Source: Escherichia coli
GTDB taxonomy: Bacteria; Pseudomonadota; Gammaproteobacteria; Enterobacterales; Enterobacteriaceae
Reading direction: 5' to 3' (one strand)
NCBI RefSeq assembly: GCF_048403405.1
Contig: NZ_CP183129.1
DNA: 64,000 nucleotides
Under the pieces are notes generated by a model. That model made no database searches and was not told the origin of the DNA. It saw only the letters and a list, made by a program, of their open reading frames with translations. Positions 2,542 to 10,614 of this stretch are shown piece after piece (position 1 is the first letter of the stretch; every line of letters begins with the position of its first letter). The translations under genes were made by a program, and so were the position numbers.

Positions 2542-4453
2542 TCACTCCTCCGGACAGCTTCGCTGCCAGTTCTTTAAGGGTTGGCCGGGTCGTCTCTTCT
2601 TCCCGGGATTTTGCCAGTACAGCCAGATCAAGCTGCCAGCGTTGCACGGACACACGTAATGCCGCGTAGGCATACACCAGGCAGTCCAGCGCTTCGTTAC
2701 GCCGCTTTTTGTTATCCCACAGCAGACGCATCTTTCCTTTTTCCCACTTCTCCACAAGCTCTTCCGCGACCAGTTGCTGCGCCTCTGTCTGCGAAAAAAT
2801 CTCCGGATCATCAGGAAAACGGATGGCATACGACGTGGCTTCATCCGCAGGCGTGGGCTCGGCTTTCATACGGGCATAGAGAATTTCTTTTGCGGTGTCC
2901 GTCCCCACTTCACACAGATAAACGCCCCGCTGATTGCGGGTTTTCGGCATGGTGATCACCGGCTTGCCATAGACAGACGCGCCTTTTACCGGCAGCACAC
3001 GGAAAACACCGTGTTTTTTTGACCTCTGGTAGACGATTTCACCATCGATCCCCCCGGTGTCCCAGCAGACACGGGAAATGGTCATTTCGGTGCCATCCGC
3101 ATGGCGGTATTTTTTGTTGATCGCCGCATCCACACGTAACAGCGTCTCTTCCTCATCAGGACGCCCCATAATGATGATTTTATCCACCAGAAAAGCTTCC
3201 TCTCCCGGTGCCCATCCCCAGACATACATCTCAAAACGGTTTCGCTGCGAGTCAATGCCCGCCGTCAGATAAACCACCCGGGCAGGCACCGCCGCCGTGT
3301 AACGCACAACCTTATCCATCAGCACCTGGTGATCGAGTTTTTCGCCCACGGCCTCTTCCCAGGTCTCGCCCAGCGTGGTGTTCACAAAGGTTTTCAGGCC
3401 GTTGGGATCTTTCAGTGCATCCAGCCAGTCATAGACTATCTGTACCCAGGTGGTGAACGGACTGTACGCTGTCCAGATATGGAACGTGATGGAGCGCGGC
3501 GGCGGAATTTCATTATCCGCGGCGCTGAAAAACGTCAGACCGTCACGGGTCCACATCCCCGTGTTTTCACAGATCCACCGCCCGTTGCTCTGGTCAAGCT
3601 CAGACTGATGGATCACGCAGCCATGATGTTCACAGAGGTAGAAAACGCTTTCGGGGCTGTCCTTCTCCCATTTAAGGCCAAAAGGCGTGGATTCATCGCC
3701 AAATTTCAGATACTGCTCCTCCCCACAGTGTGGGCAGGGCACATAAAAACGCATGAAATGCGCCGACTCGTTGGCCGCTTTTTCGATCTGGCAGGTGCCT
3801 TTGATTTTAGGCGTCGAGCCGCGAATGGATTTGGGCCATACAGAGCCCTCAATACGTTTATCCCCAAGCAGGGTTGGCGAACCCTCTTTTTCGACATCCG
3901 GTTCGAACGAGGAAAGTTCGTCATAGCAGACCACGTCCACGGATTTTTCACGGTAGTTTTTGGCGGCAGCGCCGCCCAGGCACCAGAAACCCACACCCGA
4001 TGAAAAGCGTTTCAGCGTGAGGGTATTGTCACGATGTTTACGCCCCAGCCATGGAAAAAGGTCTTTCAGACATGGCACATCCCGAATCGTCGCCTCCACG
4101 TGAGACTTCATAAAATCTTCAGCGGCAGAATCCGTGGGCTGAAAAAGCAGACTGTTTCGGGATTTATGCTCAATAAAATACCCGACCACCCCCAGCAACA
4201 TCTTTGTATAGCCAACACGGGCAGATTTAATCAGATTAACAGTCCGGATCTGATCATTCCCCATGCTGTTCATGATGGCGATCTGGAACGGCAGCGTTTT
4301 CCATTCTCCCTCACCATATGAAGATTCTTTAGGCAGATAATAATTTTGATCAGCCCATTCAACTGGCGTCACCGGCAATGCCCTTATCAGGGGCTGTAAT
4401 GCTGTTGTGACAGCACTCATCATATTATTCAGTTGTTGCTCTGATATATTCAT
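2525..4453 (-). CDS. Terminase large subunit (lambda gpA-like)
   Basis: ORF track 2525..4510; start moved to ATG at 4453 (MNISEQQL...) by similarity to lambda A N-terminus; conserved WADQNYYLPKES, KSARVGYTKMLLG motifs. Confidence 0.9.
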   Translation of the reverse strand: MNISEQQLNNMMSAVTTALQPLIRALPVTPVEWADQNYYLPKESSYGEGEWKTLPFQIAIMNSMGNDQIRTVNLIKSARVGYTKMLLGVVGYFIEHKSRNSLLFQPTDSAAEDFMKSHVEATIRDVPCLKDLFPWLGRKHRDNTLTLKRFSSGVGFWCLGGAAAKNYREKSVDVVCYDELSSFEPDVEKEGSPTLLGDKRIEGSVWPKSIRGSTPKIKGTCQIEKAANESAHFMRFYVPCPHCGEEQYLKFGDESTPFGLKWEKDSPESVFYLCEHHGCVIHQSELDQSNGRWICENTGMWTRDGLTFFSAADNEIPPPRSITFHIWTAYSPFTTWVQIVYDWLDALKDPNGLKTFVNTTLGETWEEAVGEKLDHQVLMDKVVRYTAAVPARVVYLTAGIDSQRNRFEMYVWGWAPGEEAFLVDKIIIMGRPDEEETLLRVDAAINKKYRHADGTEMTISRVCWDTGGIDGEIVYQRSKKHGVFRVLPVKGASVYGKPVITMPKTRNQRGVYLCEVGTDTAKEILYARMKAEPTPADEATSYAIRFPDDPEIFSQTEAQQLVAEELVEKWEKGKMRLLWDNKKRRNEALDCLVYAYAALRVSVQRWQLDLAVLAKSREEETTRPTLKELAAKLSGGVNGYSR

Positions 4454-5892: not shown

Positions 5893-6219
5893 TCAAGGAC
5901 GTGACGGCGTAAAGATAAATTGTCTCTTCACTCCCTGACAGGGGCGATTCTTTTCAAATCGCCATTTCGCCATGGCCTTCACCACTTCATCACGAAACAA
6001 ATTATGAGGCTCTGAGCGGAGAAAAACGATCCGTGTCACAGTCCCATCAGCACCAATATCGAACTTAACCTCAACCAGCCCCTTGATATAATTTGCTGCA
6101 GCATATTCCGGATATCGTGGATACACCGTCACTAATTGCCGGGGCTCATCAGCTTTTTGCTGCGAGCATCCCACTGCCAGGACAGATAACAGAAAAAGTA
6201 GTAAAAGGCGTCTTTTCAT
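5893..6219 (-). CDS. Lipoprotein with TonB C-terminal domain
   Basis: Start ATG 6219 after AGGAAT; lipobox LAVGC; …YPRYPEYAAANYIKGLVEVKFDIGADGTVTRIVFLRSEPHNLFRDEVVKAMAKWRFE aligns with TonB C-terminal domain. Confidence 0.75.
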   Translation of the reverse strand: MKRRLLLLFLLSVLAVGCSQQKADEPRQLVTVYPRYPEYAAANYIKGLVEVKFDIGADGTVTRIVFLRSEPHNLFRDEVVKAMAKWRFEKNRPCQGVKRQFIFTPSRP

Positions 6220-6529: not shown

Positions 6530-7003
6530 TTATTTCAGGCACTGAGTGCGGATATAGTCCTGTGCCCCTTCCAGTTGCTTGTGCATCGTCATCAGCCGCT
6601 CTCTGAGGGTGAAATAATCCCGTGTAACGGTGTCTGCCAGTTGGGGGCCGGTTGCATTATCCACGCCGGAGGTGGTGGGGGCTTCACGCACGGAGCCTGG
6701 ACAGGTGGCGTTGATCCGCAGGCGCTTACGACCAGCGGCAACGTCAGCGCGAAGAGTTTCATTTTCAGCTCTCGCATCGGCTAATTCCCTCGAGTATTTT
6801 GCATCGAGCGCAGCAACATCGCGCTGGCGCACCTGCATATCAGTAATGGTTGCGTTCGCCAGCTTCAGTTCACTGGCTTTGTTATCGCGCTGCGCTTTGT
6901 AGGTAATCGCGTTATCACGGTAATGGTCTGTTGCCATCCACAGCGCACCACAGGCCACCAGCAGAATAACGATAAACGCGGAAAGCATTCGGTTTATGTT
7001 CAC
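6530..7003 (-). CDS. Rz i-spanin
   Basis: 157 aa; [14 protein letters not shown]…DYFTLRERL…QLEG matches lambda Rz. Confidence 0.9.
6592..6777 (-). CDS. Rz1 o-spanin lipoprotein, embedded in Rz in +1 frame (true start probably internal MKLFALTL)
   Basis: [10 protein letters not shown] lipobox and [14 protein letters not shown] proline-rich motif as in lambda Rz1. Confidence 0.8.
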
Positions 7004-7131
7004 CCCAGCAACCCCGACGAAGACAACATCATCCAGGCCATGGAAAGAAAAAGAGCAACCAGCATTAGTGAAAATGAAATGCCGACAATTACACAGAGGA
7101 TCTTCGCCAGCGTTATGAGTTTGTCTGACAT
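7000..7131 (-). CDS. Hypothetical single-pass membrane peptide (43 aa)
   Basis: ATG 7131 preceded by AAGGGAGGA; stop overlaps Rz start (ATGA); hydrophobic core [26 protein letters not shown]. Confidence 0.45.
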
Positions 7132-7145
7132 GCTTAATCCTCCCT

Positions 7146-7328
7146 TCACGATTTCAACGCAATGACCAGTTTTGCCAGCCCATACAGCATCGGGGACACA
7201 GCAACACCGACCGCCACCCACTTAATGGCAAAAGCCAGTGCTCTGCTGATGTCATCAGTTACAGGCGCTTTCAGTTCAAGGCCATTTTTCATAGTCAACC
7301 TCAACAGAATTCGTTTACACTTCGCCAT
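7146..7328 (-). CDS. Hypothetical small protein with C-terminal hydrophobic helix (60 aa; alternative start at 7292)
   Basis: ATG 7328 preceded by AAGGGAGA; ends 14 nt before next ORF; …[27 protein letters not shown]. Confidence 0.45.
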
Positions 7329-7484
7329 GTTCTCCCTTGCCTTACTCAAGGTCAGAAACACAAAACCTCGCTTGGTGCCAACAAACGGGGTTTTTACTTT
7401 TATTCACTTACGTTTCGCCAGTTCGCAGGATTTCGTGTTATCCGCCCGCGTGGCCATTCCTCATTTTTCAGCAAAATATTCTGC

Positions 7485-8018
7485 TTATCTGTCGATACCC
7501 CAGCACGCCAGCGCGCTCTCCTGGTCACGACGGGATACCTGACCGTAACAGTTGTTTGAACGAATACGGCAGTCTCTGCCACCGTCCTTAATCCACCAGC
7601 GAATCGCTTCGCAGGCACCTTTTCGATCACCAGCATTAATTCGTCTGTAAAACGTCGACGGGAAACACTTACCGGGATCAATGTTGTACGGACAGAATGA
7701 CGCGATCCCCGCTTTCTGGGGTTCGGTCAGCGGCACTCTGATGTTTTTCTCCACCCACGCCAGCGCTTTATCACGCTCAATGGCGTTAACCTGGTCGCAT
7801 TTTTCCTTCGACAACTTCATGCCCGGAACGACAGGTTTGCCATCCACCATGATGGCACCACGGCAGATGGTCCAGATACCTGCACCATCACGGTATGCCG
7901 TGGTGTGGTTGCCTTCCTTTTCATCCAGAAACTGGTCGAGAATGTCAGGCGCAGGCGCACCAGCGGCAATCAGCGCCAGAACGGCAGCCGACAGGCCGTA
8001 TTTGATTTTGGTGTTCAT
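7485..8018 (-). CDS. SAR endolysin (T4-lysozyme-like, phage 21 R type)
   Basis: N-terminal hydrophobic SAR segment YGLSAAVLALIAAGAPA; E-x8-D-x5-T catalytic spacing in EGNHTTAYRDGAGIWT. Confidence 0.85.
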   Translation of the reverse strand: MNTKIKYGLSAAVLALIAAGAPAPDILDQFLDEKEGNHTTAYRDGAGIWTICRGAIMVDGKPVVPGMKLSKEKCDQVNAIERDKALAWVEKNIRVPLTEPQKAGIASFCPYNIDPGKCFPSTFYRRINAGDRKGACEAIRWWIKDGGRDCRIRSNNCYGQVSRRDQESALACWGIDR

Positions 8019-8054: not shown

Positions 8055-8945
8055 CTAAATACGCACTTTAAGATAAGTCAGCCCCGGATGAAGCCAGTAA
8101 GCCGGCACTTTTTTAAAGGGTGGAGTATTAAAATCACGAAGAAGAGCCTCCCGCACAATTGCATCCTTATCAGCACCACTGGCCAGCGCTTCAATCTCAG
8201 CGGCTACCTGAAGATATCCCATGCAACGGCCAACGCGCTTCATCAGCCCCTGCTTTTTATTGTTCTTCAGGTAATCAATGGCAAATTCAATGAGCTCCTC
8301 ACTGTGCTGGTGCGATGGAGGTGTTACTTTCCCATTTTCTGAGATGGTTATTTTCCCAGCATCACCGGATACAACAAAGGATGGCCGGTTACACTCCCAT
8401 TCCGGGTCACTGAAATTATCATTATGAATACTGAAACACTCTGCGAGATTTCTGCTCATCACTTTCCGACAATAATCGTCAAACGCAGCAAACTGCTTTT
8501 CATCGCCAGAAGGCACCAATATCGACCATTTCTTATTCAGCTCAACGACGTAGCTCTCCAGTTTTTCAATACGTGATTCAACATCATCTTTTTCTGACCG
8601 CAGTGTTGACGGCGGCATCTTCAGAGAACAAGTAATTCTTCCCGGTAGCTTTCCTTTGTAGGTTATCAACATATCCTGCGCCTCTAAAATTACGGGGCGC
8701 TTTTCCGGCAACGGTTCGTTCCATTCACATAACCCGGCAGCAACATCCATGAAAAACTGCTTCGCCTGCTTTTTCGCCTCAGCTTCGTAAAACTCCAGCG
8801 TGGCACCTTCAGTACGGTCAAGACTAATCGCCACATCTGGCAACAACAGCGACGCTTGCCCGTCACCTTCCGACTTCACAGTAACAGTAACCTTATCCCC
8901 GTAATTATTTATCCCCTTAACAACCAGTTCATATTTTTTATTCAT
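8055..8945 (-). CDS. Hypothetical 296-aa protein inserted between holin and endolysin
   Basis: Long ORF, ATG 8945 four nt after holin stop with GGGGAGAG upstream; ends 36 nt before endolysin; no TM segment, no motif I recognise. Confidence 0.7.
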   Translation of the reverse strand: MNKKYELVVKGINNYGDKVTVTVKSEGDGQASLLLPDVAISLDRTEGATLEFYEAEAKKQAKQFFMDVAAGLCEWNEPLPEKRPVILEAQDMLITYKGKLPGRITCSLKMPPSTLRSEKDDVESRIEKLESYVVELNKKWSILVPSGDEKQFAAFDDYCRKVMSRNLAECFSIHNDNFSDPEWECNRPSFVVSGDAGKITISENGKVTPPSHQHSEELIEFAIDYLKNNKKQGLMKRVGRCMGYLQVAAEIEALASGADKDAIVREALLRDFNTPPFKKVPAYWLHPGLTYLKVRI

Positions 8946-8949
8946 CACT

Positions 8950-9165
8950 TTACTCTCCCCGCGCCGCCTTACGCCGGTCCTCTTTGATTTTGAAATACAG
9001 GTTAGTCAGATATGTCAGCAGCCCAAACAGCAGACTCCCCAGCACGCCTATTGCCGCCCACTGAGACGGGGAAACCCTGTCCAGCAACTGCAGGAACCAG
9101 TAGCCCGTTCCCACCGCTGACGTGGTGTATGACACACCTGTTGTGATTTTTTCCATCTGGTACAT
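8950..9165 (-). CDS. Class II holin, phage 21 S21 pinholin type, dual-start motif MYQM
   Basis: [71 protein letters not shown] matches S21 as I recall it; two Met three codons apart. Confidence 0.85.
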
Positions 9166-9921: not shown

Positions 9922-10257
9922 ATGAAGTGGATTGTGATTGATACAGTTATCCAGCCATCATGCGGAATATCTTTTTCAGTCATATGGAGTAAAATAAAAT
10001 TAATAATCTGGTATCAATCGGATGCTTTCTTACCTCCTGAAAGTATATTTACACTGACTCACACAGGTATCATGCTCAATAACAAAGTGCTACCTGTAAC
10101 CATTTACAACGTAGTACCATTCAATAAAACATTCTGGAATTTAATCAAAAACAGCCAGGAATGCCCTACAAATACAGATAACGTATTGAATGAATGCTTT
10201 AATAACCGTTGCACTCTGCAAATATGTCCTTATGGGCTAAAACAACAAAGTCCATAA
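9922..10257 (+). CDS. Hypothetical protein (111 aa), AT-rich moron on opposite strand to late operon
   Basis: ATG preceded by AAGGAAACTAA; strongly AT-rich relative to flanks; candidate promoter TTTACA-15nt-TATACT upstream; GC hairpin downstream (10295..10316). Confidence 0.5.
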
Positions 10258-10614
10258 GGAGTTTACTCACATCTGACAAAATCAATATAAACAGCCCCTC
10301 CGGAGAGGGGCTGGAGAGTGGCGCTATGTGCCATTGCATGGTGCCGGGTGCCTCCCGGTGAATTCAGTACCAGCACCTGAATCCGCGATTATCCCATATA
10401 CCTACTCGCTGATTGCCCCTCCGCACAGGGGGATTCACCATGCCAGTTTCTTTTAACAAACTCCCCGCAAACCAGACAACAGTCAACCGCCTGAATTGTG
10501 AAGTATTTAAAAATTTCTCCCGCTAACTGATACCCGGCTAACAGTCTGGCGTTTTCTTTTTCAGCAACGGGAAAGCAACAACCACCACACCCACCAGCCG
10601 CCCATTTACCACAA

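Follow-up and report, generated by a model that had tools for sequence, protein, structure and literature searches.

Lysis of Gram-negative hosts by phages is usually described with three components, the holin, the endolysin and the spanin, but the releasin of phage Mu (2022) and Lcc6 of LambdaSo (2024) indicate that further small membrane proteins can be essential. The Mu releasin gp25 (DUF2730) is a membrane-anchored protein encoded near an endolysin of the signal-anchor-release (SAR) type, and it helps to release SAR endolysins, including that of 933W, whose R protein was used as a SAR endolysin (PMC9239132). Lcc6 is a protein of 65 amino acids (aa) with a single transmembrane (TM) helix, formerly of unknown function, that is needed for lysis by the Shewanella phage LambdaSo, a phage that lyses by means of a pinholin, a SAR endolysin and Rz-Rz1, and its authors asked whether other lambda-like phages have such factors (bioRxiv 10.1101/2024.01.23.576932). 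Two small genes, here called pep60 and pep43, are examined below in a prophage lysis cassette of Escherichia coli. They lie on the minus strand between a SAR endolysin gene and the i-spanin gene Rz, in a stretch of 64,000 nucleotides (nt) of contig NZ_CP183129.1 (assembly GCF_048403405.1), referred to as the window. The pep60 gene almost certainly, and the pep43 gene very probably, encodes a real small inner-membrane protein. Both genes are already annotated; what is new is the picture of a pep60 family and of a nearly universal open reading frame (ORF) for a small helix that abuts Rz in this group of prophages.

Coding evidence for pep60 and pep43

A first-pass annotation had placed two ORFs of 60 and 43 aa in this interval and had credited each with a strong Shine-Dalgarno (SD) sequence and a single hydrophobic helix. 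Their coordinates, the minus strand and the two SD sequences are confirmed (Table 1), and the best 19-aa Kyte-Doolittle windows reach 1.88 in pep60 (residues 38–56) and 2.89 in pep43 (residues 11–29). Taken alone, the length of these ORFs is weak evidence for coding, the chance of meeting no stop in random codons being about 0.13 for 43 codons and about 0.06 for 60. The reading frames are also conserved and under purifying selection. All 21 distinct alleles of pep60 are open, with a ratio of nonsynonymous to synonymous substitution rates (dN/dS) of 0.18 (confidence interval 0.07–0.32), which falls to 0.06 in the core, against 1.1 and 4.8 in the other two frames of the same strand. All 33 distinct alleles of pep43 are likewise open, with a dN/dS of 0.45 (confidence interval 0.23–0.74) against 0.77 and 1.14 in the other same-strand frames. 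Codons 14–21 of pep43 were fixed by the search pattern, and the ratio is 0.51 without them; K4, L5, I6, K10, C13, V25 and W33 are invariant outside this segment. The start with its SD and the stop of pep43 keep their positions across three upstream contexts. After pep60 or pep31 (another small peptide gene, see below), the SD lies in or over the upstream stop codon, and after the antirepressor gene ant, the ATG overlaps the ant stop.

The use of dN/dS as a test of the coding strand was rejected, as the mirror antisense frame contains no stop in any allele and scores about as well as the sense frame (0.21 for pep60 and 0.54 for pep43). Low values in the mirror frame are expected, since both frames share third codon positions. 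As dN/dS cannot decide the strand, the call rests on the SDs, the starts, the stops, the coupling, the direction of the operon, the hydrophobic helix and a ribosome profiling (Ribo-seq) entry. This entry is XECs191 of O157 Sakai (49 aa, MMGWLMISDKLITLVK...), a homologue of pep43 that is one of 465 'novel intergenic genes' with a Ribo-seq signal; in LB, it had a translatome value of 12.6 reads per kilobase per million (RPKM), a ribosome coverage value (RCV) of 0.43 and a coverage of 0.55, and its product is predicted to reside in the inner membrane with a single TM helix (PMC5597208).

Two antisense ORFs of the plus strand, 6923–7165 (80 aa) and 7162–7542 (126 aa), face pep43, pep60 and the hairpin that precedes pep60. 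They have no SD and no conserved start, their extent varies between loci, and they are most likely a side effect of the codon content of the sense genes.

In RefSeq, both products are hypothetical proteins (Table 1; WP_001303555.1 for pep60 and WP_001280929.1 for pep43 in O157 EDL933). Both belong to PHROG families annotated as of unknown function, pep60 matching phrog_4493 and phrog_3246 (E 1.9e-28 and 4.3e-19) besides the family given in Table 1. The stop of the endolysin gene R and the start of Rz are 481 nt apart, in agreement with the gap of 480 bp given by the first-pass annotation, and this interval holds exactly pep60 and pep43. The gap had also been called unusual, but it is not so among E. 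coli prophages: a megablast search of 5426 complete E. coli genomes aligns some portion of the region in 2134 and 80% or more in 988. The genes pep60 and pep43 are present in prophage lysis cassettes of about 40% of complete E. coli genomes. The pep43 gene is confined to Escherichia and is found, often unannotated, in 276 phage records with 65–100% identity over its full length. Most of these records are of Shiga toxin (Stx) phages, and in Stx-converting phages, which set Shiga toxin free on lysis, the antirepressor gene is followed by pep43 and then by Rz. Homologues of pep60 occur in Salmonella (65–80% identity), and the family is present in 9–14 of 50,697 deposited phage genomes, including plaque-forming E. 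coli phages such as PhiR5_2. This cassette of small genes is handled inconsistently by annotation pipelines.

Strain K-12 does not carry the region: in its Qin prophage, rrrQ overlaps rzpQ and there are no such ORFs between the two, and the names of K-12 small proteins (ynfP-ynfU and similar) are therefore inapplicable. A scan of genome contigs with a degenerate DNA pattern (about 35 bits) gave 36 matches in unrelated taxa, all of which were chance matches on translation, and it yielded no species census. Lysis and prophages are unmentioned in 'The Cryptic Bacterial Microproteome' (PMC11188072).

The pep60 family, its two starts and its hairpin

A profile search of 1.84 billion representatives returned 28 clusters for the pep60 family. 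Its hosts are Escherichia, Salmonella, Klebsiella, Serratia, Enterobacter, Yersinia and Achromobacter, and all members found in two profile searches are labelled 'hypothetical'. The family consensus reads x-Y-K-R-h-h-L-R-L-[ST]-M-K-N-G-L-E-h-D-A-P ... A-F-A-I-[RK], followed by a TM helix and by an end in ...RWW or ...ALKS. The protein can be divided into a basic N-terminal helix, a conserved turn (MKNGLE..AP) and a single C-terminal TM helix; an AlphaFold2 model has helices at residues 2–14 and 22–59 separated by a loop, with a mean predicted local distance difference test (pLDDT) score of 75. The copy in the window has all four features of the family, namely the motif, the C-terminal TM helix, an internal methionine with GAGR and an upstream hairpin, its sole departure from the motif being a K for D (E-L-K-A-P).

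The internal methionine (Met13 in the window) is present in every lineage examined, and the cationic N-terminal extension is kept at the protein level in members that differ in DNA. In 15 of 15 distinct contexts, the arginine located three codons before Met13 is encoded by AGG or AGA and the preceding codon ends in TG, which places TGAGR 6–7 nt before the ATG; the other conserved arginine, in the YKR motif, is mostly encoded by CGA. The TGAGR and the ATG are kept although synonymous sites drift elsewhere, the expected outcome of selection for an internal ribosome-binding site. Many gene callers start pep60 at Met13, which results in entries of 48 aa. By its sequence, pep60 has the dual-start arrangement that marks holin/antiholin genes, with four basic residues between M1 and M13 (K3, K5, R6 and R10), and it should give forms of 60 and 48 aa differing by four to five N-terminal positive charges. 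No second start is found in pep43.

A further arrangement is found at the start of the long form in copies of the Salmonella type and in some E. coli copies. There, the strong SD (AAGGGAGA element) serves a mini-ORF of 8 codons (MCREVCSL or similar), whose TGA shares bases with the GTG at which the long form begins (2967–3003 in the Salmonella locus L206; also L221, L224, L225, L227, L228 and L043, the L numbers designating loci). This arrangement suggests that translation of the long form may be regulated. The window copy is without the 24 nt of the mini-ORF and starts directly at an ATG.

A GC-rich hairpin accompanies the gene in every lineage examined. It is found about 35–60 nt upstream of the gene in 16 divergent members of the family, with a fold energy of −19.4 kcal/mol in the window copy. 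In an alignment of the 16 copies, 92% of the cells pair, and this value drops to about 60% when the partner is slid by one column. The stem also covaries, with 21 double-change cells against 5.5 in shuffles, and none of 500 shuffles reaches the observed number. The lambdoid copies are followed by a good T-run and are detected by a terminator scan. The hairpin may serve as a terminator, may stabilise RNA or may be a site of recombination.

With its A-tract and T-run, the hairpin accompanies the gene into differing contexts (L206 ~2905–2945, L212 ~2440–2480, L216, L219, L220, L210 and L211), and GGCA or GCAAG recurs in its loop. Upstream of the hairpin of L206, a hydrophobic ORF of 34 codons (MYMAAMICFVAAFMLACDGRSGWGWFLLVGLIVM, 2708–2812) overlaps the 3' end of the lysozyme gene; it may be due to chance.

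Position next to Rz and possible functions

Genes of the pep60 family lie between endolysin and i-spanin in five cassettes whose endolysins are unrelated and whose i-spanins are of three or more kinds. The endolysins are of the rrrQ-type SAR in E. coli, of the R21-type SAR in Salmonella, GH19-like in L223, GH108-like in L226 (these two labels come from reading the sequences by eye and not from a profile search) and of a fifth type in L228. A family member also precedes Rz directly in a Yersinia prophage remnant, another is located immediately upstream of a lysozyme gene (L220), and a third belongs, in a high-GC phage (L210), to a series of small TM ORFs that includes a pinholin-like one and lies upstream of a SAR endolysin. 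Of 12 distinct contexts, about 8 adjoin lysis genes, far more than expected from the fraction of phage genes devoted to lysis, and all contexts appear to be situated in regions of late-type genes (structural or lysis). The proposal that the family is specific to pinholin/SAR systems was rejected, as the endolysins of L223 and L226 have no SAR segment.

The slot next to Rz was surveyed in 80 loci chosen by their endolysin only, and both R and Rz are present in 76 of them. An ORF of 28–49 aa with a single helix terminates no more than a few nt from the Rz start in 75 of the 76; the sole exception, L057, has a methylase-like ORF of 254 aa. In this census, the slot peptides are of the pep43 type (33), pep28 or pep50 (24) and pep32 (19). 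The peptides pep60, pep50 and pep28 are homologous (z 17.2 and 14.7), pep28 corresponding to the core of a paralogue of pep60; pep31 is related to pep32 (z 4.9), and pep43 is unrelated to the other slot peptides. The resulting architectures are mosaic: pep60-pep43-Rz, pep31-pep43-pep60core-pep28-Rz, Ant-pep43-Rz, pep60-pep28-Rz, pep50-Rz and pep32-Rz. The immediate downstream neighbour of pep43 is always Rz or a pep60-core gene; the start of pep43 is coupled to the preceding gene and its stop abuts the next start.

Some further features of these peptides were recorded. A second family of small single-helix peptides (..W-K/R-F-L-L-x-W.., end ..RWW) is often in tandem with genes of the pep60 family, also outside lysis cassettes; its copies include pep31 (L003 3211–3306), pep32 (L020 3733–3831) and those of L219 (~732–827), L230 (~10183–10268) and L210 (3305–3403). 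Many unrelated-looking peptides finish in R-W-W-stop just before the next start (TGGTGGTGA). In the arrangement pep31-pep43-pep60core (L003 3287–3559), the +1 frame has no stop throughout pep43 and continues into the pep60 core. This frame gives annotations of 83–90 aa (phrog_3246) and natural pep43::pep60core fusions (P0214 and P0220), which may be artefacts of annotation, variants with indels or products of frameshifting. An origin of pep43 as a duplicated TM segment of Rz was considered and rejected: comparisons with four Rz N-termini gave shuffle p values from 0.001 to 0.6 with inconsistent registers, and the DNA has only matches of 9–11 nt elsewhere in Rz.

The recurrent position between endolysin and spanin, the coupling to Rz, the dual start and the precedents of the Mu releasin and Lcc6 point, tentatively and with somewhat less than even confidence, to pep60 and pep43 as accessory late membrane proteins of the lysis cassette. 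They would be accessory because phages with the same endolysin type can be without them, as is K-12 Qin. The following course of events can be proposed. Both peptides would be made only late, from a Q-antiterminated transcript that reads through the hairpin. Both would insert into the inner membrane with the N-terminus inside and would modulate membrane steps of lysis, either the timing of pinholin and SAR endolysin or the readiness of the spanin; they are probably not lytic themselves. In a stronger and doubtful version, the pep60 family would be an unrecognised fourth lysis component, with the cationic long form as inhibitor and the short form as the active one, which jointly would set the action of the spanin or of pinholin and SAR endolysin; pep43, pep28 and pep32 would then be analogous partners in the slot.

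An antiholin-like or spanin-modulating role had been suggested in the first-pass annotation. The dual start, the recurrent position between endolysin and i-spanin and the packing against Rz agree with it, whereas no antiholin or spanin family is matched; the observation itself was essentially correct, with one sequence detail wrong (see below), and its interpretation is plausible. Searches of Pfam, NCBIfam and PADLOC gave no match to a holin, antiholin, releasin, spanin, toxin or defence family for either peptide; a match of pep43 to DUF3930 (E 0.095) is not significant. Neither peptide qualifies as a spanin, as at most about 14 residues lie beyond the TM helix and both are without a lipobox, and neither qualifies as a releasin, as DUF2730 is not matched and proteins of 43 and 60 aa are without a cytoplasmic domain of about 70 aa.

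Besides these absent family matches, several observations weigh against an accessory role in lysis. Members of the pep60 family also occur outside lysis genes: in L216-218 and L230 they precede sheath-initiator and baseplate genes, in L219 the gene is close to Dit, in L212 it comes after tail fibres, and in L222, another non-lysis context, it is followed by a terminator and two small ORFs. Unrelated slot peptides interchange, possibly reflecting the history of recombination rather than function. K-12 Qin, lambda and DLP12, which have the same endolysin or a related Rz, are without these genes. Several non-lambdoid hairpins have weak U-tracts, and the label of terminator gate may not hold generally. 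As to the genes themselves, the mirror frame is as open and nearly as constrained as the sense frame, and the Ribo-seq signal of XECs191 is weak and comes from uninduced cultures. Even so, a membrane protein with a conserved dual start whose gene is repeatedly found between those of endolysin and spanin would be a candidate regulator of the last steps of lysis, and if it is irrelevant to lysis, there is still a mobile cassette of small genes with its own conserved RNA hairpin.

Phage morons, such as bor and lom of lambda, are additional small genes that separate two genes which are direct neighbours in related phages, a definition that is said to go back to Juhala and colleagues in 2000; as an autonomous unit, a moron has its own promoter and a downstream terminator and is expressed in the lysogen. 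As the main alternative, it is possible, if rather unlikely, that pep60 and pep43 are moron-like mobile cassettes of the late region that act outside lysis, for example in superinfection exclusion, in blocking the re-adsorption of progeny to debris or in another change of the host membrane, the junction between R and Rz being merely tolerant to insertion. Like morons, the two genes have an insertion-like position, a mosaic distribution and a terminator-like hairpin. The pep60 family moves with its own hairpin and leader into tail-fibre, baseplate, Dit-adjacent and L222 sites, and the slot between R and Rz, whose content is highly mosaic, carries other cargo, namely the antirepressor in Stx phages and the methylase-like ORF in L057. 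Among the differences from morons, a simple consensus scan found no sigma-70-like promoter upstream of pep60 and pep43 on the coding strand; their hairpin is upstream of the gene, whereas that of classic morons is downstream, and both genes are translationally coupled into the late operon and packed against Rz. The predominance of contexts beside lysis genes also argues against this proposal.

Translation of Rz is normally carried out by ribosomes that have just completed the preceding gene, as at the ATGA overlap of lambda. It is quite improbable that the short ORFs, mainly pep43, are coupling adaptors that deliver ribosomes to the Rz start once the hairpin or the cassette has parted R from Rz, their peptide products mattering little. 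Every variant does end 0–12 nt from the Rz start, SD-like bases come only from the last codons of the peptides (GGGGTGA, or TGGTGGTGA where the peptide ends in ...RWW*), unrelated peptides can replace each other in the slot, and the constraint on pep43 is only moderate. However, pep60 is strongly constrained, above all in its core, and its protein is conserved where no Rz follows. In addition, all slot peptides retain a full TM helix, which a pure coupling device would not need, and pep43 has the seven invariant residues listed above.

A role as small membrane toxins of the type I or abortive-infection kind, also raised in the first-pass annotation, is highly improbable. The size and hydrophobicity of the peptides recall Hok, Ldr and TisB-like peptides, but no toxin or defence model of NCBIfam or PADLOC is matched, an Rfam scan of the region gave no match, including none to an antisense or antitoxin RNA, and no promoter-like site was found on the coding strand. 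The SDs are strong, exposed and coupled to late genes, quite contrary to type I toxins, whose translation is tightly repressed, and the cassette is carried by plaque-forming phages (PhiR5_2). Finally, that the minus strand carries mere chance ORFs in a mosaic junction, or that the plus-strand antisense ORFs are the real genes, is barely credible: ORFs of 43–60 codons are not rare by chance and the mirror frame is open throughout, but the signal of that frame is expected, the antisense ORFs vary and are without start signals, and the sense frames have conserved SDs, starts and stops, the coupling, the TM helix, the operon direction and a sense-strand homologue listed as translated.

The cassette compared with described systems

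The minus strand of the region carries a lambdoid lysis cassette in the order holin, YdfR-like ORF, endolysin, the interval with pep60 and pep43, Rz/Rz1 and lipoprotein (Table 1). As stated in the first-pass annotation, R abuts Rz in lambda and phage 21: the genes R and Rz of lambda overlap by 4 nt, as do rrrD and rzpD of DLP12 (21-like). The junction of pep43 and Rz had been read as ATGA, but the actual sequence is GGG-GTG-A, the pep43 stop overlapping a GTG. The first ATG of the Rz frame lies 12 nt past the pep43 stop and is the start chosen by RefSeq/PGAP. In sister alleles, the Rz ATG is 8 nt past the pep43 stop, and the window has ATA at the aligned position; for this reason, a start of Rz at the GTG of the junction (7003) is plausible but unproven in the window. 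The Rz start is thus ambiguous between this GTG and the ATG located 15 nt further (MLSAF...).

Table 1. Features of the lysis cassette in the window (positions count from the first nucleotide of the window)
Feature	Position	Strand	Remarks
pep60, long form	7146..7328	-	60 aa + TGA; RefSeq WP_001446668.1, hypothetical protein; phrog_1115, E 3.7e-42
pep60, putative short form (48 aa)	7146..7292	-	internal ATG (Met13, 7292..7290); SD-like GAGG at 7302..7299
SD AAGGGAGA of pep60 long form	7331..7338	-	precedes the pep60 ATG
GC-rich terminator-like hairpin and T-run	7356..7395	-	between endolysin stop and pep60; terminator scan match 7387..7369
pep43, single-TM peptide (43 aa)	7000..7131	-	43 aa + TGA; RefSeq WP_001280932.1; phrog_4906, E 2.1e-23
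SD AAGGGAGGA of pep43	7138..7146	-	GGAGG 7 nt before ATG; begins on the final base of the pep60 stop codon
GTGA junction	7000..7003	-	pep43 TGA (7002..7000) overlaps candidate Rz GTG (7003..7001); alternative ATG 6988..6986
i-spanin Rz	6530..7003	-	phrog_13, Rz-like spanin, E 1.6e-73
o-spanin Rz1, embedded within Rz	6592–6777	-	from the ORF listing
SAR-type endolysin, rrrQ/933W R type	7485..8018	-	phrog_7, endolysin; weakly hydrophobic Gly/Ala-rich N-terminal segment
YdfR-like ORF (297 aa)	8055–8948	-	between holin and endolysin; phrog_1085, family annotated as of unknown function
S21-like class II holin (pinholin type)	8950..9165	-	phrog_9876 and phrog_20, holin; RefSeq class II holin family protein; own MYQM dual start
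Lipoprotein with TonB C-terminal domain	5893–6219	-	downstream of Rz; TIGR01352, E 1.8e-12

Two neighbouring genes deserve comment. The lipoprotein with the TonB domain occupies the place of bor in lambda, and its PHROG family, phrog_1267, is labelled 'Rz-like spanin', which looks like a mis-annotation. The frame of the 297-aa ORF is intact in the window; an otherwise identical RefSeq genome annotates only its first part, as an incomplete 'YdfR family' pseudogene.

Among described proteins, XECs191 is a direct homologue of pep43. It is the 49-aa form of the Stx phages, is about 67–74% identical and follows the antirepressor gene, not pep60; no function was proposed for it (PMC5597208, Huecker et al. 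2017). The Mu releasin gp25 differs from both peptides in its size (99 aa), its N-out/C-in topology and its acidic cytoplasmic domain of 73 aa, and pep60 and pep43 match neither DUF2730 nor any other Pfam family. Lcc6 (SO_4795) consists of an N-terminal TM helix and a cytoplasmic tail of 43 aa and is encoded far from the lysis genes. Compared by layout and not by sequence, pep60 has the reverse arrangement and pep43 is almost without a tail.

The dual-start holin/antiholin genes, such as those for S107/S105 of lambda and S71/S68 of phage 21, also differ from pep60 in several respects. The starts of pep60 are 12 codons apart instead of 2–3, its product contains a single TM helix and lacks a charged C-terminal tail (it ends in ...VIALKS, and pep43 in ...SSSGLLG), its gene follows that of the endolysin instead of preceding it, and no holin model of Pfam, NCBIfam or PHROGs is matched. 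The holin of the window itself has the dual start in its classic MYQM form. Like the holin/antiholin genes, pep60 belongs to a lysis cassette and has two in-frame starts for a small inner-membrane protein, the longer predicted product carrying extra positive charge at its N-terminus.

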